Origin: Nemertoderma westbladi
Taxonomy: Eukaryota; Animalia; Xenacoelomorpha
Assembly (NCBI GenBank): GCA_032718475.1
Contig: JAUCBJ010006577.1
Span: 1 to 53,156, forward strand
Direction of reading: 5' to 3'
DNA: 53,156 nucleotides
This document shows positions 10,838-53,156 of the stretch, piece after piece. The notes below the pieces were generated by a model that was not told the origin of the DNA, ran no database searches, and saw nothing but the letters and a program-made list of their open reading frames with translations. Both the position numbers and the translations under genes were made by a program. Position 1 is the first letter of the stretch, and every line of letters begins with the position of its first letter.

Positions 10838-11467
10838 ACCGACACCGACACTACGGCACTAAGACTAGGACCGAGGGAAAATCTGGGGAACATTAGGTAG
10901 GCTAAAATCTGAGCGAACAGTGGGTAATTAAATAATATACTGTAGGGATTTATATTGTCGTATATAATTATTGTGAATATTTGGTGTATATTGATTTGGG
11001 GAAGCCGAAAATTATTCTCAATCAGGTTTCAACTGTAGGAAGTTACATTAAAGAGTATATCCAACTAATGCAGCTTTTTATCAACCGCAAACTTGCATCT
11101 CAGAAAACATTCCTTCTCCACAATCAATATCCGGTGACTGGCCGGGGCTCGGTGGTCTGTAAAGTCACGTCTCCAGCATCGGCGTTTTTCCCCCCTGGTG
11201 TAGGGATAACGGCAACAAAATTGAGAATAATTAATGCGGTTAATTTTGACAGGGTGTCAAAATTAAGAATAATTACGGTCAACTTCAACTGGTGGAAGTT
11301 GAGAATCCTTCAATACTCTTCAAAACTCTCTACGTGCTTGCCAGCACCCACTACGAGGAAACTCTGGTATTTGAGTTGAGACAAAGTCGTGGTTTAATTA
11401 ATCAACAAACTCGATCTAACCAACTCGTAGTCGGCAGATCACATATTTGGAGAGTTGTTAACAGGGA

Positions 11468-19176: not shown

Positions 19177-19725
19177 ACCCCTTCCACGACAAAGATTAAC
19201 CAAAGAAAATGATTCAATATAGTTGGAAACGATGAAAAGGATCAGACAACTCTACTATAAACCTGAATGATGACGCGTATGCTGATGAAAATGTAATGAT
19301 GCGCACCCTGGTGCTGCGCTTATATCAATGATGATAGCCGGGGGGCTATAAACCCAATGATGATGTGGAAATAAATAAATAAATGTGAAATAAATGGTGG
19401 AACTAAATGTTGAAATATATGTGGAAATAAATGAAATGAGATGAAATAATAATGAAATGAAAAAAGACAAAAAAAAAGGTATAAAAAAGTCTAAAGAAAA
19501 GAATTAGAAAAAAGAAAAGGACAAAAAAGTCATAAAAAACTGGTTGGATATTAATGTATAGCTATAGTAACTGTAAATGCTGAATGTATTAGCAATAAGA
19601 TGATAGATGCCTATATAGCAATGTTATTAATAAACTGAATTAAATAAAAAACTGAATTATTCTGCTATCGCTATAGTTTCAGACTTTCTGGACTTATAAT
19701 TAACTGATCTAATTTGTAACGGATA

Positions 19726-20983
19726 TGTTCGCACTTTCAGACCTTTGGCAGTTTAACCCGCCAAATTAGGATGTCTTCTAGATAATAAATCGCTTTAGCC
19801 TCTAACAAATATTTGATTCACTACACTAGTTGAAACCAATCTGTGCGCGATCATTCACCCGTTGGATATACCCGGGAGATTGATTTCGACAGCTTAATCG
19901 TATTGCTATGTAAGCCTAATGTATTATTCGACTGACAGTATTATATAATCTCTGACAATATTATTCACCTTCGGGAAATATTAACAGTTCCTTTAGGACG
20001 TGGCGCTCTATCTATATAAACAGAGTTATGACTTAAACTACTCACAACGATATGGCTTAGTTACAATTCACATATATGGCGCATTCTTTAGGAAATGCTT
20101 CGTTATCAGTCTCACTCATACACAATGCTGCACAATACTGCACACTGATCTGCCGATCTTCACTGATTTTAGTCACATATAAAAGGAACACGGACCGAAT
20201 CATGTAGGGTCTATCAGATAACATTAGATTCACTTCAAACCACTCAACATAGGTCGCAATCATTTATCTGTAACCTTTCTCTCTTACCTTCGGTATATCA
20301 AGAATATTGGGTTTTCGGGGTTATTTGTCGTTATTCCAAATATAATAATTCATCAACCATATTATGAAGAACTGACAGTAAATAGCAGTATAACAATATA
20401 AAAGTATGCACAGTGTTACACAGTATGCAGTGTATGCAGTACTGCAGTATGCAGTATGCAGTATGCAGATAACGGATATATGTCCTTATAATTAAGCCTA
20501 CTAGTGTAGGGCTAAAGCAGAAAAGCACAAAATACTCCAAAGCCGTTCTTCCTGGCTTAGAATCACCAACAATACTGTATAGAATAACTATAAGAATACC
20601 AGCTACCCTTATTCCACGAAGCTCCCGTCCAACACAGAGAAAGAGCAGTGAGATAGGAAAATTCAGTTCAGTAGCTCTGTGATAGGTCAAAATCAAAGCC
20701 AACTCAAATCCTATTGGCAGATACAGAAAGCAGGGCTATGGGGCAACGTGGCAATATCAGCCGTTAGCCGTCGTCATGGTAGCGACACTGTTTTCAAGAG
20801 TATCGAGCTTTTTACGTCACGAAATTACAGATTATGTCCTCTAAAGTACAAATACAGAAGAAATGGCTTTTATGTCCTCCAAAACACCAGTACAGCAAGG
20901 ACACGGCCTTTTTATGCCTGGTAAACCAACCACAGAGTACTTTACGGGGATAATAACCGGCTAATTACGCAAAAGCTTTTACA
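19726..20983 (-). repeat. 3' LTR of element 3
   Basis: Minus strand reads TGTAAAAGCTTTTGCG...GTGCGAACA. Aligns to 31522-32710 except for a central block. Confidence 0.88.
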
Positions 20984-21621: not shown

Positions 21622-22581
21622 TTAGGGTAGCACTAGATCTTTGAACAGTGAATACAGCTCGGGAGGATCCGTCATACTAATAGGATCAAGAGTCTGAGGT
21701 CTCACTAGGGAATGAGGAGCTCTGATCGAGTATTCCGAAACTCTGATCATTGGTTTATTTAAGGATCGTCTGAGTCGAACGAGCGTAGGTGATACATTGA
21801 ACAAGTTTCGCTCGAAACTCCTGTAAGTATAGCGAGTAAAACCGTGTTTAAAGCAACGTCTCCGCGGATGTTTATGTCTTTCCGTTTGTTGGTTGGGTCT
21901 TGGGTATTCATCGCAATAATACCCAAAAACGTACGTCTTGTAGGGGAAACGCGGGTGATCGTTCTCCAGCTTACAATATTCCTCCATCCGTTCGAAGCTA
22001 TTCGGTACAACAGGTAGCGGTCGATCGGCGGTAAGATACATCATAGGGGAATCGAGCCGTTTGAGTTCTACCATGCAGTCATGATGTATACCTTGAGGAT
22101 ATCGAGTTTCTAGATTTTGTTGACTGGCAATATTGAGATATGTTTCTATCAGGAATTCCAGATAATCGTTGAAGTCGCTGCGTTTATTCGGCTCCTCAAC
22201 GTCTTCTCTTTCGATTCGGTTTCGCATAGAATTCTCATGTTCGATTCTCGGTTTATTGTTCCGCCTCCGCTGGGTATGATATTTAAATAGAACCATTTCT
22301 CTTTTGGTGTCTATATCGTCTATATCGTGTAAATCGATAGGATGACCAGTAGTTAAGAAGGCCATATACGTACCATTACGCTGCGTATATCGAGCAGCGA
22401 ATTTTCTATAGTCCAACTCACGCGTGAGCCGCTCTTGGGACATTGGCGGTTCGATATAACGACCATCGTCCTCCGCAGCAGTTGGACTAACGTCGCCGCG
22501 TATTAAGCTATCAACAAACGCTTGTAAAAGTAGAGTATATCGCTCCCCGATACCAAGACCATCTTCTATCAACTCCGTCAT
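21622..22581 (-). CDS. Orphan ~319-aa ORF between gag-pro and the 3' LTR of element 3
   Basis: Long intact ORF from MTELIEDG (ATG 22581) inside an AT-rich region. No signal peptide, TM segment or recognised domain. Confidence 0.65.
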   Translation of the reverse strand: MTELIEDGLGIGERYTLLLQAFVDSLIRGDVSPTAAEDDGRYIEPPMSQERLTRELDYRKFAARYTQRNGTYMAFLTTGHPIDLHDIDDIDTKREMVLFKYHTQRRRNNKPRIEHENSMRNRIEREDVEEPNKRSDFNDYLEFLIETYLNIASQQNLETRYPQGIHHDCMVELKRLDSPMMYLTADRPLPVVPNSFERMEEYCKLENDHPRFPYKTYVFGYYCDEYPRPNQQTERHKHPRRRCFKHGFTRYTYRSFERNLFNVSPTLVRLRRSLNKPMIRVSEYSIRAPHSLVRPQTLDPISMTDPPELYSLFKDLVLP

Positions 22582-23407
22582 ATCTGCTATATATGAGTTT
22601 ATCCATATTATAATGAGTCCACATTTAGGCGAGCGGGCGTCGCTGCCTACCCCAATCAACCCCCGGACAGTACGAGATCCTCAGCGCCGATGTGTCGTCG
22701 CCGCTGTACTTTCGCCAACGACGTAGCCGCACAACGACAACGACAACCGGCACAAGTCACTCAACTGTCCGTCCCAAAGGCTTAGATGTACTTCAGGTTT
22801 TCCTTGGAGAGTTAGGTTACTTTTACGATTGCGACTAGCTACTGTAAACACACTTTAGCAGTAACATTCACCTATAAACTCACAAATACCACACAACTGG
22901 TCACAACTACACACATTCGGGCCATTTGTCCGTTAGTCAATGCCTTCCAGAATGTCACTGTATTATTATGTATCCCTGGATACTAGTAGTGCGCTATTTA
23001 TTCCCTATGCTATTCAATGGGACAAGCTTTCTATTGTTCTTTTAACTCAATTCTAATTCTAGCGTGGTTGTTGCTATGGTGACATTATGCAAAGCTAGCG
23101 GTAGAATTAGGGTAATTCCAATGCATACAGATCTGGGATGTTATTTAATAGTATTCTTTAATAGTCAATGTCCTGTTTTATACATGACTTTATGAATTTT
23201 ATCGGCTATTGACTATGTTTGGGAGACTTCGCACACTCATACTCATAATAAGATAAATCTCCGCTCCCTTGATCTATTAATTAATGGAATTTTGGGAATG
23301 TTATAAATTGCGTAAAAATGGCAATTTATTAAATTCATTAAAAGGCATGAATTTAAATTTATTCCCTGAAATTTTATTATTTGATAATTAAATTGACATA
23401 TTTTGAT

Positions 23408-24229: not shown

Positions 24230-27200
24230 TTACGTTATGGAGTCCCTAGATGTTTGAAGGATTAGGGAGGTGGTCGTGGGAAGAGAATCTTGCCTTCCAC
24301 AGTTTCCGGAGAGTCCTCCATTCCCTTCCGGTAAACACAAACGACCGACTGGGTGATTGAGTCGCTGCATCCCGAATACAATTCCAGGTTTCCTCTTCGT
24401 CCTGGAATAGTGACGATAGAAACATCGCTCTAGGTACACGACGGCCTTACAAAGCCGATTCCAGGAGCTATAGTGGTCTGTCGCTCCCTGCAGGAGAGGT
24501 GAGAGTCCCTGCGAGATGTCTGATGTTCCAGAGCTCCAATCGCTCTCTCTGATCTTCATGAAGGATCCACTCGCGGTGGGGAGGTCCAGATCCACGGCGT
24601 CGTCTCTGGCAATATGCAATACCGACAGATCTATCCCGGGTTCAAATAACTCCGCTCCACCCGTCCGGGTTTTAGGTTTGACTTTCTCCGCTCCCTTGGC
24701 TGGTCTAATCTCAGTCGGAGTAAGATGGGGAGGCCATTCATCCTCCTTACTCAGGAAGTCGGGTTCACCTAACCGGTCTGTAGTATCTGTCAGTTCTTGA
24801 GGAGTTGCTCCTCTGGAAGCGATGTCGGCTAAATTCATCGTCTTGGGGCAATATCTCCATTGATCTACATTGGAGTTAAGATTGTCATTATCTGAGGAGT
24901 GTGGTGTTCCCTCAGTTGGTTTGTCTCCCTCACTAGTATCATCTTCCCATTCACTCACCTGGCAGACGCGATCTTGAAGCAGTCTTTCTCTGAGTGTTCT
25001 TCGGGAAGGTCCAGTAAGGTACCAACCTACTCTAGTTCTTACCGCATAGGTCTGAAGTGGTTGCGGTTGAGCAGGTCGTTTCTCCAATGTCTCCAGCGCC
25101 TCATGCGCGTTTTGACCGATTAATATTTGTACTCCAGGATAATCGGTGTCGAATCTAGGAATGTTAAGTCGTTGGGCATGATCATCTTCGTCCCAATTAT
25201 AAGGTTCCACTTGGGTGGTAGCGAAGTTCTTTATTGCCACCATTTTGACTGACCTTATACTGTGTTCTCCTAGTTTATCCTGTGGAGTGGACAACTCACA
25301 TATATAATAGTCGGCAGCCACAGCAGATTTCCAAACCTGCATGATCCCTGACATGTTTAGCTTGGTTCGGAACTTGGGTTGTCCAGCAAAGATGTCCTCG
25401 GCTAGTTCCCTATCGATGAATGTTCCCGTGCTGCCGGAGTCCAGGAGGGCGTTCACTATATAGCTCTTCTGAGGTCCGTGGACCCGTAACTGGACTACAG
25501 GAAATTCTCGGATTCCTACATTTGAAGTTGGCGCTTTCCAAGATTGTTGTTGATCTGAAGTAGTTAGGGTAAGGTCGCTGTCTGTGTCTTTCTCATACAT
25601 GAGTGCTCGATACACTGCGGTGGTGTTTATTAAGTAACAGGATTCGTTTTCGTCGGAGAACTCGTCCGTATAGAATCCTTCCATCTCAGATTGATCAGTG
25701 TCGTTCACATCACTGAATTGGACATGTAGTTCGGACTCACTTACCTGACTCGGGCTGTTTCGTTCGAATTCCGTGTGCAACAAGATATGATGTTTTGCGC
25801 CGCACTTTGCACACCTTGCGTCGGAGTAACAGGTTCGCCGTTGGTGTCCTCGTCTGAGGCAATTATAACACAACCGCTTATCCCACATGACTTCACGTCT
25901 ATCCTTTAGTGATTTCCTCAGGAATTTATCACACGCATTTAAACGGTGGGGCCCGTCGCACAGCACACATTTCGGCTTGATGTTACTTACTTTAACCTGT
26001 GCTATGTGGTGCACACTTGTTCTTTCCTCGGGCTTTCTCACCTGAATTCTTTTAGGAGACGTAGGAAGGGTTTTTTGTACCTGTTCTCTCCTGTCATTTG
26101 CTCGAGACTTGAATTTACTTACCTGATCTTTAGGCATTTTATTGACATAATAAGATCTATCAGTGTCTTTCCCGCTATCTTCTCCTTGAGAAGTCTGGCT
26201 TTCGCCGTCGTCTGTATAACACACTGGTGTTACCTTTCTCCTAGAGACGGGTTTTTCACTTACCTTGTTTTCCGGTGTCTTCTCTCGGGACTGCTTGAGG
26301 AGTTGCAATTTCACTTCTCCATCCAAGAATGACATGAGATCAGCCATGGTAGGGTCTCGTCGTTGTTGTTCCATCATATATAGTACTTTCTTATCCCAGC
26401 GTGTGCCTACCCCACCTTTCGGTAAAGTAGAAGCCACAGCTCCAATGACCATAGAACTTTGGTATTCATGAGACTTACCTAACCAATCTAATTGTCTACA
26501 GATCTCTTGAATCTCATCGGAAAACTCTATTATCCCACTGCTGATGAACTTTCTGGGCGCTACTAATTTTGCATATAAATACTTAGCGATATTATTCCTA
26601 TTACCATACCTGATGTTTAGTGTGTCCCAAACTTGTCTTAATCCGTCTGGATGTCCAATAAACTTTAACGCCATTAACTTGGGAGATCCTTCCAAGCACT
26701 CGATGAGGTATCTAAGTTTTTCTCCATTAGATAGTACAGAGTTCTGTATGTTATCTTTGTAATATTCATTAAAAGGTAACCATTTCATCTCATCTCCATT
26801 GAATTTGACTATCTCTCCCACCTTCACCGCTTGACGGGCTTCGGTTCTAGCCATTTGACGCGTAAAACTTTCTTGGGCCATCGTGTTATTTAATATCGAG
26901 TTATCGGTATATAAATTTCTCGGATTATGATCAGGTCTATAGGGAATGTCATTATCAACAGGTCTATAATTACCCTTAATAGGGTTCACTATAGGAGTTT
27001 CTACTTCGCTAGCAGTATAGATGCGTGTAGGCTCCACACCTTGCGCATGAGATATTTCAGACCTAACAGGTTGACACATTGTTACAGGGGGTGGTGGTAT
27101 ACCCTTTTGTAAATTTACTAATTTATCGCGTTCTAGCGCGATATTTTGCTGCACTTCTTGCAACTCTAGCCTACTTTCCCTTACTGTGCCCTTTAACTGT

Positions 27201-29266
27201 TGAACAGTCCCTTCTAACTCTCGGACCTGTTGGGAGGAGCGTGCTTGATTCTCCTCCATCTTTCCGAGGAGAATGTCCATCCCCCGCCGTCTCTCGTCCA
27301 CCCAATCAACCGCCGAAACGGGATCCGCCAACGTCGTAGCGGGCAGACGAGGGACAACGGGCGACAAATCAGTAATATTTCGCTCGGGGTCCAGGACCTG
27401 AACTGTCTTCTGGGCAGTTCTACTGGGCACAGGTAGCTTAGTGCTATGCAGAGGGAATGTAGAGGTAGCTTCAGGGAGCACAGGTGTGTCTATCACCGAA
27501 GGGGTGATTTCAAAAACAGGCCTAATTATTTCAGGCTCATCTACTATAGTAGGGAGTCTTTCTATTTTAATTATTTGGTCTGTGGGTTCTGTACTGCCTA
27601 AGTTGGTGTTATTTAGTTGCCTTCTAACAGCTGGAGGCAAATCAGGCAATTTCTGACGGTGGAATGTTCTTTTACGTCTGCTTAGACGAGATCTATTTCC
27701 TTTGCCTTCAGTATCGGTGGTATCGCCTTCTTCAGATGATGTATATCCCTGTCTTTTGGGAGTAGATCGATTCATCATCTGCATATTACTAGCTGTTAAC
27801 TGTTTACTGAAGTCGTCTTGCTTCTCTTGAAGATTTTCCAACTCCAGTTGGGTGATCTCTTCAGCCGCTCTCCGTTCTGCTTCCGCCACCGCTGCCGCTT
27901 TTGCCTCTGCCGCTGCCGCTTTTGCCTCTGCCGCTGTCGCTTTTGCCTTTGCCTCGGCTTCTGCTGCTGCCGCTTTTGCCTCTGCCGCTGCCGCTTTTGC
28001 CTTTGCCTCGGCTTCTGCTGCTGCCGCTTTTGCCTCTGCCGCTGCTTCTGCCAAGGTCGCCTTTCTTTCTGCCTCTGCCACTGCTGCTATCTTTCTGTCT
28101 TCTATACGTTTTTTCCTTACTTGTTCTTCCTTTTCTCTAGCGATGCGGAGTTGTTCATCGAATTTAGCTTGGTTCGCCGCTAACCTATCTACATCTATTG
28201 CATCCAACACACGCTGGGCTCCTTCACTATTAGGGCTAAGTCCATCTAGCCTTCTCCTCAACTCTTCATCTCCCAAAAAACGCTGATAGTCTGACAGATA
28301 GATGTCAATGGCATCCTTCTTATGCGGTTTCTCTGCCGTCGCTTCACTTTCCACTTGGGAAAAAGTAGCGTCCGTTGATTCTCCATGGGTTGAGCGCTCC
28401 TCCAGCTGAGCTTTCCACTGAGCTGCTCCTTGAACCTGGCGACTCACCCGTTGAAACCAAGTCTTTACGGCAACTTGCAACGACGTGTCTTGTCTTCGTT
28501 TAGAAGCCTCCTCAAAGGCCGATAATATTAACCTGATTCGTAGAATTCTTTCTCTTACTTGATAAAGCAGCTGTCCCTGCTCTTGAGGTCCTTGAGGTTG
28601 TTGTAACAGTTGTTTTTCTACTCGCTCCATAGAGCTGAAGAATCCCTGTGCGTATCCGGCTGCGGACCTCTTCCACACAGCTGGATCTATGGTTTCCTCG
28701 GCTACTCCCATCCGGTGTATGTCTTCCCAGGCAGCTTCGGATAAATCAAACGGGAGTCCGGGTCCGGGAAAGTTCCATTGCGACTCGACCATGGACTTCA
28801 GTTCTTCCCTTGTGTATCCAGCATAACTATCTCTAGTTGAACGCTGGCTTCTCGCCCAATCGATCTGGTGTTCTTCCACAGCGATCAATAACCTAGTGAG
28901 TACGGCTGCAGGAAGGATGAGAAGGGGATCTGAATAAGCCTCATCCGTCATCCTTGCTCCGCGTTCGGGTGTCAGTTCTACCGTATCTTCACTACTGGAG
29001 CTGTCGGGCCGCTGAGAAATAAGTTCTTGGCTCGCGGGTTGTTGCTGTTCCGCTGCTTCTTGGTTCCGCTTGACCTGAGCTCGAGTGCCTATGACAGACC
29101 TACGATGTTGGACCAGCCTAGGTTCTTTTATTACTACTGGAGGGATGACCTTCCTCACAGTGGGAGGTGAACTGAACTTACGACCAGACGGTTCTACGTC
29201 TCTATCTGAGTCGCAGATAGTTACATCTAATAAACTGTCTGACAGGTTCTGCTTAGTATCAGACAT
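24230..29266 (-). CDS. gag-pro: Element 3 Gag-protease polyprotein (1678 aa) lacking RT, most of RNase H, and integrase
   Basis: KFNGDEMKWLPF...EKLRYL; CVLCDGPH, CYNCLRRGHQRRTC, CAKCGAKHHILLH; LLDSGSTGTFI. After RVGWYLTGP it jumps to the RNase H-end motif QWRYCPKTMNLADIASRG. Confidence 0.9.
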   Translation of the reverse strand: MSDTKQNLSDSLLDVTICDSDRDVEPSGRKFSSPPTVRKVIPPVVIKEPRLVQHRRSVIGTRAQVKRNQEAAEQQQPASQELISQRPDSSSSEDTVELTPERGARMTDEAYSDPLLILPAAVLTRLLIAVEEHQIDWARSQRSTRDSYAGYTREELKSMVESQWNFPGPGLPFDLSEAAWEDIHRMGVAEETIDPAVWKRSAAGYAQGFFSSMERVEKQLLQQPQGPQEQGQLLYQVRERILRIRLILSAFEEASKRRQDTSLQVAVKTWFQRVSRQVQGAAQWKAQLEERSTHGESTDATFSQVESEATAEKPHKKDAIDIYLSDYQRFLGDEELRRRLDGLSPNSEGAQRVLDAIDVDRLAANQAKFDEQLRIAREKEEQVRKKRIEDRKIAAVAEAERKATLAEAAAEAKAAAAEAEAKAKAAAAEAKAAAAEAEAKAKATAAEAKAAAAEAKAAAVAEAERRAAEEITQLELENLQEKQDDFSKQLTASNMQMMNRSTPKRQGYTSSEEGDTTDTEGKGNRSRLSRRKRTFHRQKLPDLPPAVRRQLNNTNLGSTEPTDQIIKIERLPTIVDEPEIIRPVFEITPSVIDTPVLPEATSTFPLHSTKLPVPSRTAQKTVQVLDPERNITDLSPVVPRLPATTLADPVSAVDWVDERRRGMDILLGKMEENQARSSQQVRELEGTVQQLKGTVRESRLELQEVQQNIALERDKLVNLQKGIPPPPVTMCQPVRSEISHAQGVEPTRIYTASEVETPIVNPIKGNYRPVDNDIPYRPDHNPRNLYTDNSILNNTMAQESFTRQMARTEARQAVKVGEIVKFNGDEMKWLPFNEYYKDNIQNSVLSNGEKLRYLIECLEGSPKLMALKFIGHPDGLRQVWDTLNIRYGNRNNIAKYLYAKLVAPRKFISSGIIEFSDEIQEICRQLDWLGKSHEYQSSMVIGAVASTLPKGGVGTRWDKKVLYMMEQQRRDPTMADLMSFLDGEVKLQLLKQSREKTPENKVSEKPVSRRKVTPVCYTDDGESQTSQGEDSGKDTDRSYYVNKMPKDQVSKFKSRANDRREQVQKTLPTSPKRIQVRKPEERTSVHHIAQVKVSNIKPKCVLCDGPHRLNACDKFLRKSLKDRREVMWDKRLCYNCLRRGHQRRTCYSDARCAKCGAKHHILLHTEFERNSPSQVSESELHVQFSDVNDTDQSEMEGFYTDEFSDENESCYLINTTAVYRALMYEKDTDSDLTLTTSDQQQSWKAPTSNVGIREFPVVQLRVHGPQKSYIVNALLDSGSTGTFIDRELAEDIFAGQPKFRTKLNMSGIMQVWKSAVAADYYICELSTPQDKLGEHSIRSVKMVAIKNFATTQVEPYNWDEDDHAQRLNIPRFDTDYPGVQILIGQNAHEALETLEKRPAQPQPLQTYAVRTRVGWYLTGPSRRTLRERLLQDRVCQVSEWEDDTSEGDKPTEGTPHSSDNDNLNSNVDQWRYCPKTMNLADIASRGATPQELTDTTDRLGEPDFLSKEDEWPPHLTPTEIRPAKGAEKVKPKTRTGGAELFEPGIDLSVLHIARDDAVDLDLPTASGSFMKIRESDWSSGTSDISQGLSPLLQGATDHYSSWNRLCKAVVYLERCFYRHYSRTKRKPGIVFGMQRLNHPVGRLCLPEGNGGLSGNCGRQDSLPTTTSLILQTSRDSIT
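27888..28052 (-). repeat. In-frame Ala-rich repeat (AAAEAKA / AEAEAKAK)
   Basis: Tandem GCTTTTGCCTCTGCCGCTGCC variants. Confidence 0.85.
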
Positions 29267-30587
29267 GTCTACGTATACCGTTGAATGTCTACTGCTGTAT
29301 TACAGTCTGAGCAAGTCTAGTAATTCAGTATTAACTGCTAGCCTAGTAATTAATTACCGATACTGCTACTCAGTGTAGCGTGATATATATATAATATATT
29401 AGAATACCGGTATACTTATAGTATATATAACTATATAAGTATTATTACAGACTAGGTTTATCACAGAATACCGGTATAATTTTTAGCACAAATATATATA
29501 AATATATAATAGGCCTATCGGGAATACCGGTATACAGCTTACAGTTTGTAGTATATATAATTCTGGAATAGAATTAATTACAAGTACCGGTATAATTTCA
29601 GCCTAGATTTATAGAAATAAAGATAATAGGCCTATCGTAAATACCGGTATATCAATTATTTTAAATAATTGAATTTCTGAATTTTAGGGTTACTTTGTTA
29701 CTTTACTTACTTTATTACCGTTATTTGAGCAGTAGTCCAACTGATATGGAGACCTAATGGTTGTATGGTAGGCCTACTATTTATAAATCTTTTGAGTTGA
29801 TTTATAATATATATATACCCTTTAATGGGTTTTGTCAATGTTTGAAATAAATGTTATTATTTCTGGGGAGTAATCACTACACAAAGCGGTGCGCTTTCAG
29901 TGAAGTGTTACTTATAGGACACTAAAACAAATAATTCTAATTTACCTAAGTTACTTAATACTACAAATTACGTACAATTCGGGTGAGATTACAATCTCTA
30001 AATAAACACAAAAATTTACAAAAAACACAAAATACGAATTTTTAGGGTAATTTTACAAGAAGTCTACAAACCAGCCTAACAAAGGGTTAGAAATCTGGTT
30101 ATTACAACGGACAGGGTTCTACGGTATTTGAAAATAATACGTAGTAGTAAGTACACTGCGTTGTCCAGATAGGAAAATACCACCGCCTGACGACCTATAG
30201 CCGTATCGCTATAGGTTCTACGTTATGTATCACGGAGTGTTCCTACCTAGAAGTTAATAGAGCTAATCGAAAGTGCCTATCAACCACTTTACAACACAAA
30301 TGTAATGCCTACACTAATTACTTTCGGAAAGCACTGTACACTAAACCCTAAATTAGGTACGAGTACTTGTACAACATATAATCAGTAGTTAAATATACTT
30401 GAACAGCTAAAAGAACCACGGCATCTGCTGGAGTGACCGATGCACAAAATCACCAGTCTTTACCTACGCCAAGCAGCCCGTGTAGTACCGGGGTTAATTT
30501 AACTATAGCGGTATGTATAACAAACACAATTACTGTAGGAACAAACTTGGGGAATGAATGTTGCGAATAATCGCATAAACTCTGAAT

Positions 30588-31160
30588 AATAAATATTACG
30601 CTACGCGTACAAACTACTCAAACAAAATGCAGACCGAACACTGACAGACTACTATCAAGCCTAAACAAACTACGGTATATGCAGACTCCGAAATAATTAG
30701 GTAGTATGCGTTCTAACCCAGTAGTACGACTTATTCTTTAGTTGGGGGTTTACCTTACAGCATTCGCTGCCCCTACTTCCTAACCGTTCTTTATCGGACA
30801 AGTGATCTACACACGCTGCAATCCGTTCAGACCTAATAACAGCCAGACAACTATCCAGCCTACAAATTATCTAAATAAATATTATACGCTACCCGTACAG
30901 ACTTACACAAACAAAGTACAGACTCAACGATGGCAGACTACTCTCAAGCCTAAATAAACTACAGGACATGCAGACTCCGAAATAATTAGGTAGTATGCGT
31001 TCTAACCCAGTAGTACGACTTATTCTTTAATTGGGGGTTTACCTTACAGCATTCGCTGCCCCTACTTCCTAACCGTTCTTTATCGGACAGATGATCTACA
31101 CACACTGCAATCCGTTCAGACTTAACAACAATCAGACAACAGCTCAGCCTACAAATTGTC
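30588..31160. repeat. ~285-bp tandem duplication in the element 3 leader
   Basis: AATAAATATTA...GCAGACTCCGAAATAATTAGGTAGTATGCGTTCTAACCC... occurs twice. The same duplication is in element 4 at ~49940-50505. Confidence 0.85.
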
Positions 31161-31509
31161 TGTACAATCTGATCAGGCTTACACGCCTTCTGTTCAATAC
31201 TGGCCTACAAACAAATAAAACTTGACAGAAATAAGTAAAATCTCAATAAAAACCAGGCGTCCCCGATTAATTATTAAGACCTACCGGCATATATAATCAA
31301 ATCGAATAATACTGCTGTACTTATACGGGAAGTACCGGTTAGGACAGTTAGGCCTACCGACCTACTGAAGTACCGGTTCTGGCAGTTGGACCTACGGGCC
31401 TACGGCAGTACCGGTTCTGGCAGTTGGGCCTACTGACCTACAGATGGACCGTTCAGGTTTACCGGTTGACCGGTACTTTCAACTTTATTGCTTACTGCAA
31501 TAAAGAAGC

Positions 31510-31521
31510 TATATCCGTTAT
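31510..31521 (-). promoter_or_regulatory. Candidate self-complementary primer-binding site of element 3
   Basis: ATAACGGATATA directly follows the LTR end and is the exact complement of LTR positions 32258-32269. No TGG/tRNA complement. Confidence 0.65.
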
Positions 31522-32710
31522 TGTTCGCGCTTTCAGACCTTTGGCAGTTTAACCCGCCAAATTAGGATGTCTTCTAGATAATAAATCACCTTTAGTCTAT
31601 GACAAGTATTTAATTCACTACACTAGTCGAAACCAATCTGTGCGCGATCATTCACCCGCTGGATATACCCGGGAGATTGGGTTCGACGGCTTAATCTTAT
31701 TGCTATGTAAGCCTAATGTATTATTCGACTGACAGTATTATATAATCTCTGACAATATTATTCACCTTCGGGGAATATTAACAGTTCCTTTAGGACGTGG
31801 CGCTCTATCTATATAAACAAAGTTATGACTTAAACTACTCACAACGATATGGCTTAGTTATAATTCACATATATGGCGCATTCTTTAGGAAATGCTTCGT
31901 TATCAGTCTCACTCATACACAATGCTGCACAATACTGCACACTGATCTGCCGATCTTCACTGATTTTAGTCACATATAAAAGGAACACGGACCGAATCAT
32001 GTAGGGTCTATCAAATAACATTAGATTCACTTCAAACCACTTTAACATAAGTCACAATCGTTATATGTAACCTTTCTCTCTTACCTTCGGTATATCAAGA
32101 ATATTGGGTTTCGGGGTTATTTCTCGTTATTCCAAATATAATAATTCATCAACCATATTATGAAGAACTGACAGTAAATAGCAGTATAACAATATAAAGT
32201 ATGCACAGGTTGTTTGATTAGGTATGGTATGTTATGTTTAGTTATGTTGAGTTGCAGATAACGGATATATGTCCTTATAATTAAGCCTACTAGTGTAAGA
32301 CTAAAAACTGAAAACACGGAGGTGCCAAAAGCCGGTTCTTAGGCTCTGGGCAAAACATAACACTGAACTACTGAGTTTCTGTATACACCTCCAACACAGA
32401 GACAACAAACGCTCTGATTGGTCAACCTAAACAACGAGAGAACAAAGAAACAAAGAAACGTCGACGTGGCAATATCAGCTGCTAGCCGTCGTCATGGTAG
32501 CGACACTGTTTTCAAAAGTATCCAGCTATTGCGTCACGAGATTGTGGATTATGTCCTCTAAAGTACAAATACAGTACAAATACATAAGAAATGACTTTTA
32601 TGTCCTCTAAAACACCAGTACAGCAAGGACACGGCCTTTTTATGCCTGGCAAACCAACTACAGAGTACTTTAAGGGAAAATAACCGGCTAATTACGCAAA
32701 AGCTTTTACA
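31522..32710 (-). repeat. 5' LTR of element 3
   Basis: Minus strand reads TGTAAAAGCTTTTGCG...GCGCGAACA; direct repeat of 19726-20983. Confidence 0.88.
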
Positions 32711-48204: not shown

Positions 48205-48475
48205 TTCATATAAAAACAGCAATGCCGTCTGACAGTATAGTTATTGTAGGGGGTATACCTGTATACGGGTATATTATAGATATTATTACTGTATTTATCA
48301 TTTGTTTGCAAATTATTAATTATGGTAGGACTAATAACAAATCATCTAGGCCTATCAGATCAGCCTATTCTGCTATTGGCTGTATGCACAGATGCAGGTC
48401 TGCAGTCTGGCTGTCTGGGTCTGGGTTAACTGACTGTATGAACTGCAATCATAACAACAAACTCAGCGTTTTTTA

Positions 48476-49639
48476 TGTTACCGGAAGCTGGGAAGGCCTA
48501 CGTACGGTAGGGATTTATAACTAAAATAGTGCAAGCTACCAGCTTATTGGCTGATGTGCTGTACGGAGATATCTGGGCTCAGTTTAATCGGCCAACTAGC
48601 TTAGAGAGGTTGCCTTAGCCTTGCTGTTCGTGTCAGCCAATAGAATTTGCGTAGGCGTTGATTTCGACCTATCCCAGCGCTACTGAACTGAATTTCCTAT
48701 CTCACTGCTCATCCTCTGTGTTGAACGGGGCTTCGTGGAATAAGAGTTTTTGGTATACTCGTATAGTAGTAGTAGTCATATGATTTTATATGATTCTGTT
48801 GTTGTGTTCCCATTTTCGCCATAACACCGGCTTTTTGGGAAGAACTCTAGTAAAACTGCTTAAATTATCGAAAGTATAAACTGTTACTAATTAATCAATC
48901 GAATCGAAAGAACTCACTAACTCACTTAATTTAACTGCATTAATCATATTGTTTGTACTGTTATTTACCGTCAGTTATTAATTGTACCTATTTGTTGATG
49001 GAAATATTGCTCTTTGGATAATACGGATAAATCACCCAAATTTCCCAATTTTCTTGATACACTACAGGTTAGAGAGACCGGCTATACATAACAATTGCGA
49101 TTTATATTAATGTGGTGTGTATTGAATCTAATGTTATTTAGCAGACACTACATGAGTCAATTACTGCTCTCTTTATGTGTGATCAAATATACTGACGGTC
49201 GGCAGAATAGTGTGTATGATTGTGATTGGTAACAAAGTATTTCCTAAAGAATACGCTTTATACTTTAATCATAAGCGGTATCGTTGCGTTTTGGTATAAG
49301 TCTTAGTTCTGTTTAAATAGATAGAGCGCCACGCCCTAAAGGAACTGTTAATATTTCCCGAAAACCAATAATATCTGTCAGAGATTAATTATTAACGATC
49401 TATCGAATAATACAGTAAGTTTACACTGCAACCTTACACTGCAATAATAAAATTTAAGCATCCGAATTCAGCCTCCCGGGTGTAGATCCATCGGGTGAAT
49501 GATCGCGCATGGGCTGACTTCGGCTAATGTTTTGTGTATTAGCATAAATTGTTGTCGTATGCTAAAGGTGTTTTAATTAACTAAAAGACATATAAATTTT
49601 GGCAGGTTAAACTGCTAAAGGTCTTCAAAAGCGCGAACA
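48476..49639 (+). repeat. 5' LTR of element 4
   Basis: Homologous to the element 3 LTRs and ends GCGCGAACA. Start inferred from TGTT at 48476. Confidence 0.7.
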
Positions 49640-49654
49640 GTAACAGTTTATACT
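49640..49654 (+). promoter_or_regulatory. Candidate self-complementary primer-binding site of element 4
   Basis: GTAACAGTTTATACT is the exact complement of LTR positions 48873-48887. Confidence 0.65.
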
Positions 49655-51819
49655 CTTATTGCAGTAGGCAATAAGGTTGCAAAATACCGTAGTGACTGGT
49701 AAAACTGAACCGGTACTTCTGTAGGTCAGTAGGCCTAACTGTCATCACCGGTACCGGTACTGCTGTACAAGTACATTTAGTATTATTCGATTTTGATTAT
49801 TGTATACTGGTAGGTCTTAGTACTTAATCAGGGACTGCAGCCCTGAATTTTTATTGAGATTTTACCTATTTCTGTCGGTTTTATTTCCTAGTAGGCTAAT
49901 ATTGAGCAGAAGGCGTGTGACCCTGCTCAGATTGTTCAGATAATTGTAGGCTGAGCTGCTGTCTGACTGTTGTTGAGTTTGGAGAGATTACGGCGTGTGT
50001 AGAGTTTGTCTGATAAAGTGCCGTTAGTAAGTTGGGGCAGCCATATGCGGTAAGGTCAATCCCCTCTTAAAGAATAAGTCGTACTACCGTGTTAGAACGC
50101 ATACTAACTAACAGTTTCAGAGTCTGCATATACTGTAGTTTATTTAGGCTTGATCGTAGTCTGCCAGTGTTTTAGCCTGTGTTTGTTTGTGTGGTCTGTT
50201 CAGGTACCGTAATAGTTATTACTCAAATATTTGTAGGCTGGATTGTTGTCTAGCTATTTTTAGGTCTGAAGGGATTGCTGCGTGTGTAGAGTTGGTCTGA
50301 TAAAGTGCCGTTAGTAAGTTGGGGCAGCCATAAGCTGTAAGGTCAATCCCCTCTTAAAGAGTAAGTCGTACTACCGTATTAGAACGCATACTAACTAACA
50401 GTTTCAGAATCTGCACATACTGTAGTTTGTTTAGGCTTGATAGTAGTTTGCCAGCGTTTGGTTTGTATTTGTTTGAGTATTCTGTACGGGTAGCGTAATA
50501 TTTATTATTCAGAGTTTATGCGATTATTCGCAACATTCATGTCCCCAAGTTTATTCCTACAGTAATTGTGCTTGTTATACATACCGTTATAGTTAAACTA
50601 ACCCCGGTACTACATCAGGGCTGCTCGGCGTAGGTAAAGACTGGAGATTTTGTGCTTCGGTCACTCCAGCAGATGCCGTGGTTCTTTTAACTGTTCAAGT
50701 ATATTTAACTACTGATTATTTGTTATACCGGTACTTGTACCTAATTTAGGGTTTAGTGTACAGTGCTTTCCGAAGTAATTAGTGTAGGCAGTATATTTGT
50801 GTTGTAAAGTGGTTGATAGGCACATTCGTTAGCTCTATTAGCTTCTGGGTAGGAACAATCCGTGATACATAACGTAGTACCTATAGCGATACGGTTATAG
50901 GTCGTCAGGCGGTGGTATTTTCCTATCTGGACAGTACAATATATTTACTACTTATTATTTCAAATACCGTAGTACCCTGTCCGTTGTAATAACCAGAATT
51001 CTAACCCTTTGTTAGGCTGGTTTGTAGACTTCCTGTAAAATTACCCTAAAAATTTCGTACGTAATATTTTGTTGTGTTTAATTAGAGAATTAATCTCATC
51101 AGTATCGTAAGTAATTTGTAGTATTAAGTAACTTAGGTAAATTAGAATTATCAGTTTTAGTGTCAAATAAATAGCACTTCACTGAGAGGCGTTCAGCTTC
51201 TGTGTAGTGACTCCCCCAGAAATAATAACATTTATTTCAAATATTGACAAAAACCCATATAAACGGGTATATAAATATTATAAATCAAATCAAACGATTT
51301 ATAAATAGTAGGCTTGTCATACAACAACTAGGTCTCACTACCAGTTGGACTACTACTTAAACAACGGTAATAAAGTAAGTTAAAGTAGCTAAGTAACCTT
51401 AAAATATTCAGGAATTCAATTATTCTAAAAATAATTGACATACCGGTACTCACTATAGGCTTATTATATTTATCTCTATAAATTTGAGCTGAAATCATAC
51501 CGGTACTCTGTAATTAATTCTAGTTCATAATTATACTTATATACTATAAGTGTAAGCTGTATACCGGTATTCACTATAGGCCTACTATATATATGTATAT
51601 ATTTGTGCTAAATTATATACCGGTACTCTGTGACAAATCTAGTCTGTAATAATACTTATATATATTATAAGCATACCGGTATTCTAATATATTGTATATA
51701 TATCACGTTACACTGAGTAACGGTACCGGTAATAAATCGCTAGGCTTGCGGTCATACTGAATTACTAGACTTGCTTTAACTGAAAATATAGTAGTAGACA
51801 TTCAACTGTATAACTAAAC

Positions 51820-53156
51820 ATGTCTGACACTCAGCAAAACCTGTCAGACAGTCTGATCGATACAACTATTTGTGATTCAGATAGGAGTGTGGAGCGAATA
51901 AGAAAGGAGTTCGGCTCACCTCCTACTGTAAAAAAGGTCATCCCTCCAGTAGTATCAGACCCTAGGCTAGTCCACCATAGGTCCATCATAGGCACTCGGG
52001 CACAGGTAAAACGGGACCAAGAGGCAGTTGTCCTATCGCAGCAACATCTTGGTCAAGAACCTACTTCCCAGCGACCCGATAGCTCCAGCAGTTCGGATAC
52101 TGTAGAGTTGACTCCCGAACATGGAGTGCAGATGGCTGATACAGTCTACTCGGACCCCCTTCTTACTCTTCCTGCTGCAGTGCTAACTACTATATTCATT
52201 GCGGTGGAGGAACATCAAGCCGACTGGGCGAAGAATAAGCGAGCGACCCAAGATAATTACGCGGGATACGCCAGGGAAGAATTGATATCTATTGTTGAAT
52301 CACAATGGAACTTTCCCGGACTCGGACTTCCATTGGATCTGTCCGAGGCTACTTGGGAAGATATACACAGGATGGGAGTGGCTAAAGATACAATGGATCC
52401 AGCTGTTTGGAAGAGGTCGGCAGCAGGATATGTGCAGGGATTCTTCGGATCCTTGGATCGATTGGAAGAACAACTGTTTCGACAACCTCACGGACCTCAA
52501 GAGCAGGAAGAGCTGCTATACCAAGTACGCGAAAGGACCCTACGCATTCGACTAATCCTCTCAGCCTTTGAGGAAACTTCCAAAAGAAGACAGGACACGT
52601 CGCTGCAGGTTGCTGTCAAAACTTGGCTACATCGGGTAGATCTCAAAGTACAGGAAACGGCCCAGTGGAAATCCCAGCTGGCTGAGAGATCAACCTATGA
52701 AGAACCAACTGATGTCACCCTTTCTCAAGCGAAAAGCGAAGAGGCCGCCGAGGAACCGCGAACTAGAGACGCTATCGACATTTATTTGTCCGACTATCAG
52801 CGATTCCTAGGAGACGAAGAGTTGAGGAGACGGCTGTCTGGACTTTCCCCTAATAGTGAAGGAACCAAGCTTGTATTGGACTCAATCGATGCCGAAATGT
52901 TAGCTGCAAACCAAGCTGAATGTGATAAAAAACTCCGTCTCACTAGAGTCCGAGAAGAACAAATAAAGAAAAGAAGGATAGAGGAACAAAAGGCGGCGGC
53001 TATGGCAGATGCAGAAGCAGAAAGAAAAGCAGCAAAGGCGGCGGCTATAGCAGATGCAGAAGCAGAAAGAAAAGCAGCAAAGGCGGTGGCTATGGCAGAT
53101 GCAGAAGCAGAAAGAAAGGCAGCAAAGGCAGTGGCAGAAGCAGAAAGGAGAGCATC
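51820..53156 (+). CDS. gag: Element 4 Gag N-terminus (partial, apparently open to the window end)
   Basis: MSDTQQNLSDSLIDTTICDSDR... is homologous to MSDTKQNLSDSLLDVTICDSDR of ORF 24230-29266. Ends in 45-bp KAAAMADAEAERKAA-type repeats. Confidence 0.88.
   Translation, partial: MSDTQQNLSDSLIDTTICDSDRSVERIRKEFGSPPTVKKVIPPVVSDPRLVHHRSIIGTRAQVKRDQEAVVLSQQHLGQEPTSQRPDSSSSSDTVELTPEHGVQMADTVYSDPLLTLPAAVLTTIFIAVEEHQADWAKNKRATQDNYAGYAREELISIVESQWNFPGLGLPLDLSEATWEDIHRMGVAKDTMDPAVWKRSAAGYVQGFFGSLDRLEEQLFRQPHGPQEQEELLYQVRERTLRIRLILSAFEETSKRRQDTSLQVAVKTWLHRVDLKVQETAQWKSQLAERSTYEEPTDVTLSQAKSEEAAEEPRTRDAIDIYLSDYQRFLGDEELRRRLSGLSPNSEGTKLVLDSIDAEMLAANQAECDKKLRLTRVREEQIKKRRIEEQKAAAMADAEAERKAAKAAAIADAEAERKAAKAVAMADAEAERKAAKAVAEAERRA

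Follow-up and report, generated by a model that had tools for sequence, protein, structure and literature searches.

Candidate self-priming from LTR RNA in BEL/Pao retrotransposons of Nemertoderma westbladi and distant relatives

[quoted passage not shown] Two of them, element 3 on the minus strand and element 4 on the plus strand, the latter with a gag that runs off the end of the window, carry at the primer-binding site (PBS) position a sequence complementary to a segment of their own LTR. This arrangement is discussed as a candidate for self-priming, that is, the start of reverse transcription from an RNA piece of the LTR.

Element 3 encodes a BEL/Pao-type Gag and protease in an open reading frame (ORF) with DUF1759, the best protein matches of which bear PF05380/PF03564/PF18701; nothing in this ORF matches the reverse transcriptase that elements 1 and 2 encode. 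The order of BEL/Pao pol is PR-RT-RH-IN; elements 1 and 2 contain domains of the Pao pol and an integrase, and the pol of element 4 falls beyond the window. The LTRs of element 3 (1189 and 1258 bp, TG...CA ends) and a short purine-rich tract correspond to the BEL/Pao traits of LTRs of 0.2–1.2 kb and a polypurine tract. The 3' end of the LTR was set at the base past which the two element 3 LTRs cease to agree; the start of the element 4 LTR is a guess, somewhere from 48240 to 48613. The coordinates of the features are given in Table 1.

Complementarity between the LTR and the primer-binding site

The downstream arm of element 4 (49639-49654) is the exact reverse complement of 48873-48888 over 16 bp. 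Position 49639 is the final base of the LTR, so 15 of these 16 nt follow the LTR end; the end of the predicted primer was placed at the LTR boundary, and one further pair reaches into the LTR. At the homologous position of element 3, 31510-31521 is the exact reverse complement of 32258-32269 over 12 bp, starting from the first base past the LTR end. The partner lies ~750 nt upstream of the PBS in both elements. Among 5000 shuffled LTRs no chance match of 16 nt was obtained (the longest had 13 nt) and matches of 12 nt occurred in two. The two duplexes have energies of -14.1 and -19.8 kcal/mol with their own partners and of -3.0 and -5.0 kcal/mol once the partners are swapped, and the PBS-partner duplex is the top helix common to both elements in their two-element alignment.

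The part of the LTR that separates the duplex arms shows 74% identity between elements 3 and 4 (706 columns). On an ungapped reading, six of the 12 duplex pairs are changed on both sides between the two elements, while a gapped alternative that minimizes change has three substitutions and one paired indel. In 150 local column shuffles three double-sided changes appeared once and otherwise at most two, and a simple independent-drift model gives ~2e-5 for three mirrored changes without a mismatch. This covariation represents a single comparison of two copies. An earlier sequence-only reading of this DNA had reported the exact 16-nt complement in element 4, its homologous position in element 3 and the alteration of both partners with pairing still perfect; these observations are confirmed, the mirrored pairs (six of 12) being compared with at most three in the shuffles.

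A tRNA 3' end used as primer requires TGG at the PBS. The first TGG after the LTR end occurs at +58 in element 4 and at +267 in element 3, and half of the positions in the PBS site are different between the two elements, with each site following the LTR of its own element. No tRNA gene was found in the window. [quoted passage not shown] An 18-nt site for the 3' end of either tRNA is absent from elements 3 and 4, this site being a listed trait and not the phylogenetic basis of the family.

Table 1. Features of elements 3 and 4 in the window.
Feature	Position	Strand	Remarks
Element 4 candidate self-primer, an LTR segment that complements the PBS	48873..48888	+	predicted 3' end 48887
Element 4 sequence at the PBS position, adjoining the LTR end	49640..49654	+	
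Element 3 LTR segment complementary to its own PBS	32258..32269	-	identical 12 nt in 3' LTR, 20469-20480
Element 3 sequence at the PBS position, adjoining the LTR end	31510..31521	-	
Element 3 5' LTR	31522..32710	-	1189 bp, TG...CA ends
Element 3 3' LTR	19726..20983	-	1258 bp; short purine-rich tract before LTR; without target-site duplication
Element 3 gag-protease ORF	24230..29299	-	DUF1759
Element 4 5' LTR	48381..49639	+	both element 3 LTRs used to set the 3' end, by homology
Element 4 gag, N-terminal part	51814..53154	+	72% identity to element 3 ORF
Element 4 hairpin directly after the PBS	49655..49675	+	one compensatory change relative to element 3 (31504-31484)
Element 4 predicted U5 stem, 49462-49474 with 49511-49523	49462..49523	+	element 3 counterpart 31686-31627
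Element 4 predicted 8-bp U5 hairpin, 20 nt before the LTR end	49598..49619	+	kept in element 3 via two G-U swaps

Distant BEL/Pao families and the end of the partner

A set of 79 relative loci was fetched from metagenome assemblies with a BEL/Pao protein alignment, the retrieval being made via the polymerase of element 2 and not via elements 3 or 4. Both LTR 3' ends were mapped in 13 loci, which correspond to 12 families after removal of a duplicate (L007). Under strict splice filters, 11 of the 12 families pair over 10–15 nt with their own LTR, from 0–4 nt past the LTR end; the same filters applied across families admitted 7 of 132 pairs, six of them within three kin. In the twelfth family (L009) an 11-nt pairing over a splice junction is admitted only by a looser filter. 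TGG is found near the LTR end in one of the 12 mapped families (L056).

In 10 of the 11 pairing families the partner is the exon-exon junction of a GT-AG intron and exists only once the intron has been removed, which points to pairing at the RNA level. LTR introns of the GT-AG type with a junction complementary to the PBS measure 72–186 nt in L005, L008, L025, L030, L034, L035, L051, L066, and L078, and LTR introns reach 426 nt in other loci. In L032 the partner is contiguous, as it is in elements 3 and 4. These three are the basis of the contiguous form, and L074, L022, L029, L060, and L071 are unverified candidates. The distance from the partner end to the LTR end is 47–243 nt in the relatives where it was measured, compared with ~750 nt in elements 3 and 4. 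A splice-junction partner was also considered for elements 3 and 4 and rejected, as element 4 gains 2 nt with poor splice sites and element 3 nothing. When the loci with at least 600 nt upstream (68 of the 79) were scanned blind, spliced matches of at least 11 nt were detected in 23 loci, against one of 68 on the opposite strand and one of 68 in shuffles.

The end of the partner was compared in 27 rows (25 loci plus elements 3 and 4). It consists of A followed by C (22 rows) or T (5 rows), and every one of the 12 mapped families has this AC/AT end, as do elements 3 and 4. The 10-nt PBS site takes 23 different forms in the same rows, each matching its own LTR. The count leaves out duplicates (L007, L020, L031, L036, L054) and loci with doubtful LTR ends (L010, L016, L017, L052, L062); among the latter, L052 and L017 end in AA and so do not fit the AC/AT end. 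The shared end no more than hints at a defined cut. Internal G-U pairs, which were permitted in the search, are absent from 19 of the 20 spliced duplexes, whereas G-U swaps do occur in the local stems that elements 3 and 4 have.

An LTR motif had no match in viral or metagenome contigs, and neither the element 3 protein nor a BEL/Pao profile had a match in viral contigs. A reverse transcriptase tree built by a quick method from 75 of the 79 relative loci plus elements 1 and 2 has elements 1 and 2 on long branches, and elements 3 and 4 cannot be placed with it.

Local stems and neighboring features

The hairpin directly after the PBS, for which covariation had also been proposed from the sequence, is present in both elements at the sites listed in Table 1. 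Its compensatory change fits a single U-A/C-G swap better than a paired indel and was equalled by 142 of 150 shuffles, which is chance level; taken alone, this change is therefore no evidence. In the relatives, compared by eye, this hairpin is not obvious as a common feature. In the predicted U5 stem, absent from the earlier reading, both sides differ at 4 of 12 pairs (three in one 7-bp run), and there is one wobble change. A scan of 48300-51900 against Rfam (E up to 1) gave no match.

Some further sequences adjoin the partner or the PBS. A pyrimidine-rich stretch ending in CAG, ~90 nt past the partner, is conserved in both elements (48958-48974; 32168-32184) and resembles a splice acceptor; no donor is shared between this stretch and the partner. 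Splicing or trans-splicing at this stretch could yield a message that lacks the partner. Immediately past the 3' LTR of element 3, 9 nt (19717-19725) repeat part of the candidate primer, i.e., the reverse complement of the PBS; apart from the partner and PBS sites, the window contains no such 9-mers, and the flank is not significantly LTR-like past these 9 nt. Integrase-less Tf1 insertions bear the PBS in direct orientation according to PMC11042837, and the orientation of the element 3 piece is the opposite. This piece is possibly a captured fragment of primer.

The LTR pair of element 3 shows strong differences within a part of U3 in which the 3' LTR is nearer to element 4 (83%, 157 nt). The U3 divergence and the absent target-site duplication suggest that element 3 is probably a recombinant of two insertions. 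An extra open frame of 352 codons (21622-22680, minus strand) without a Pfam match occurs in the 3' part of this element, and a ~288-nt tandem duplication (30588-31161; 49936-50511) is found in both elements within a leader of >2 kb ahead of gag. Elements 1 and 2 are arranged head to head with both 5' LTRs apparently missing (10880-10919), and two LTR-end-like words, ending at 10892 and 10919, lie in tandem. No LTR pair was identified for element 1; the candidate PBS of element 2 at 10920 has no partner (best match 8 nt), and the LTR of this element appears cut off. Element 4 is head to head with the start of a host Sec7/BIG (ARF-GEF) gene, at a distance within ~200 bp (48207-48381). This gene has only two introns here, both GT-AG and one of them filled by a 21–23-nt tandem array; it is ~50–66% identical to the genes of other animals and forms a long, unplaced branch in a Sec7 tree.

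Proposed self-priming and its alternatives

Elements 3 and 4 quite probably start reverse transcription from a piece of their own LTR RNA rather than from a tRNA. The LTR segment in the transcript would anneal to the complementary site just past the LTR end and, by analogy with Tf1, would be cut after an AC/AU dinucleotide by the RNase H of the reverse transcriptase; element 3, which appears to lack the enzyme, would obtain reverse transcriptase/RNase H in trans. The freed segment would prime minus-strand DNA and plus-strand synthesis would copy the primer into the PBS in every cycle, making both arms change together and purging G-U pairs. The sequences show the complementarity, its position, the mirrored changes, the missing TGG site and the like arrangement in distant families, and we infer the presence of the LTR segment in the transcript, the cut after AC/AU (the enzyme being assigned by the same analogy) and the copying of the primer into the PBS.

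The mirrored changes are probably the result of a primer copied into its site in each cycle and are no proof of compensatory selection on the long helix. The earlier claim that a ~750-nt-range duplex is under selection does not follow, because a copied self-primer would alter both arms in step even under little selection on the helix; moreover, two copies give a single comparison, the hairpin covariation is at chance level and the predicted fold is not robust to added flanks. The covariation marks the LTR segment as the likely primer, and the scarcity of G-U pairs in the duplex fits copying. In this scheme elements 3 and 4 represent an intron-free form whose loop, ~750 nt, is unusually long. 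The self-priming model itself, already put forward in the sequence-only reading, gains additional support from where the site lies relative to the LTR end, from the missing TGG, and from distant families that have an equal arrangement and partner end.

The predicted duplex probability is ~0.99 in both elements if the RNA starts at the partner and ends ~80 nt past the LTR, and a two-sequence consensus fold also predicts the PBS-partner duplex. A number of observations weigh against self-priming as proposed. The addition of 30 nt upstream lowers the duplex probability to 0.14–0.25, and 180 nt downstream or longer fragments give values of at most 0.12. TATA-like hexamers lie inside the partner of element 4 and 10 nt before that of element 3 and, if real, would put the partner upstream of the RNA start; 23 of 25 relatives have no such hexamer within 75 nt upstream of the partner. 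Only two copies of the element 3/4 family were compared, and the relatives are distant (~27–41% protein identity to the element 2 polyprotein). Among relatives with a contiguous partner only L032 is anchored by both LTR ends, and contiguous matches of at least 11 nt in the blind scan are at chance level (12 of 68 vs. 8 and 7). Finally, the G-U count is biased toward copying, most rows having been first found by exact match.

Some of these points would suit a variant within self-priming, rather unlikely in our estimation, in which the same LTR segment comes from the 3' LTR of genomic RNA or from a separate short LTR transcript and anneals in trans. The fragile long-range fold, the TATA-like hexamers at or just before the partner and the identical 12 nt in the 3' LTR of element 3 agree with this origin, as does the retention of the intron in both LTRs of the spliced families, which implies that spliced and unspliced LTR RNA must coexist. 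Against it stand the fold of RNA starting at the partner (~0.99 in both elements), with which the consensus fold agrees, and the use of the 5' end described for Tf1 and Tj1 in PMC4600332.

It is improbable that the duplex is instead a selected structural or regulatory helix (for PBS masking, packaging or RNA circularization) and that a host RNA, for instance a tRNA half or a small RNA, serves as primer, even though ICTV describes Belpaoviridae as primed by tRNA-Arg or tRNA-Gly (PMC8742986) and internal tRNA fragments prime some copia lineages, as stated in PMC6317226. A fixed host primer would hold the site constant, so the difference at half of its positions between 74%-identical relatives and its 23 10-nt forms in 27 rows count against this option; in addition, the selected local helices tolerate G-U and the PBS-partner duplex does not. 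Copying at the DNA level, by template switching or conversion between short inverted repeats, could keep the arms complementary with no role in priming, and the contiguous partner in the DNA of elements 3 and 4 and the 9 nt of partner after the 3' LTR of element 3, which indicate that pieces do move, are compatible with it. This process, however, cannot account for complementarity to exon-exon junctions in the relatives and leaves the fixed LTR-end position, the common AC/AT end and the lack of another primer site unexplained, for which reason it is considered very improbable.

Self-priming from an LTR RNA piece would relate elements 3 and 4 to Tf1/Tf2 of Schizosaccharomyces pombe, Tj1 of S. 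japonicus and the Tf1/sushi group (Ty3/gypsy), which share a PBS after the 5' LTR that is complementary to their own LTR RNA and have no tRNA site. Predicted U5 stem-loops adjoining the PBS may be a further likeness, the stems of elements 3 and 4 being derived from two sequences; a U5 stem-loop next to the PBS is reportedly required in Tf1. The PBS of element 3 opens with the same five bases as that of Tf1, as given in PMC11042837, which may be chance. Elements 3 and 4 differ in that they have the domains of another superfamily, BEL/Pao, and Ty3/gypsy-type proteins were not found in them; their pairing is 12–15 nt, compared with 11 in Tf1, over a loop of ~750 nt, and many BEL/Pao relatives form the partner only by splicing. 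The Tf1 primer is the first 11 nt of the mRNA freed by RNase H; for elements 3 and 4, the hints that the TATA-like motifs offer on the RNA start conflict. PMC6317226 describes self-priming in Tf1/sushi, predicts it for Tcn1 and TAR, and uses for plants the criterion of an LTR region complementary to at least 10 nt from 0–5 nt past the 5' LTR. Elements 3 and 4 both show this arrangement, as do Tcn1 (gypsy) and TAR/Houba/Osr-1 (copia); these are plant Ty3/gypsy and Ty1/copia elements and not animal BEL/Pao.

With Belpaoviridae as described by ICTV (PMC8742986) the window elements share TG...CA LTRs, a DUF1759 gag and a protease and, in the case of elements 1 and 2, domains of the Pao pol and an integrase; they differ in the absence of a tRNA PBS from elements 3 and 4 and from 11 of the 12 mapped relatives. 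No report of BEL/Pao self-priming was found in literature that left most subscription journals and Repbase reports outside its coverage; the main text of PMC3118150 does not mention primer, PBS or tRNA, and that of PMC554778 does not mention PBS or tRNA. The literature drawn on also includes PMC5341516, PMC3601003 and PMC13524379.

Tf1 is so far the sole case in which self-priming has been shown, and a few lineages of gypsy and copia are predicted to use it, while BEL/Pao elements are described as tRNA-primed. We lean toward the view that a broad animal BEL/Pao branch has exchanged tRNA priming for a self-made RNA primer cut after AC/AU; most families would splice an LTR intron, elements 3 and 4 would be intron-free and act across 750 nt or in trans, and the primer would be rewritten into the PBS in each cycle and so evolve freely. 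The predicted primer end provides an exact base for a testable cut. If the proposal is true, annotation tools that demand a tRNA site will miss such elements, and the third great LTR superfamily self-primes too, in at least two forms, which would mean that tRNA priming was lost or replaced more than once.
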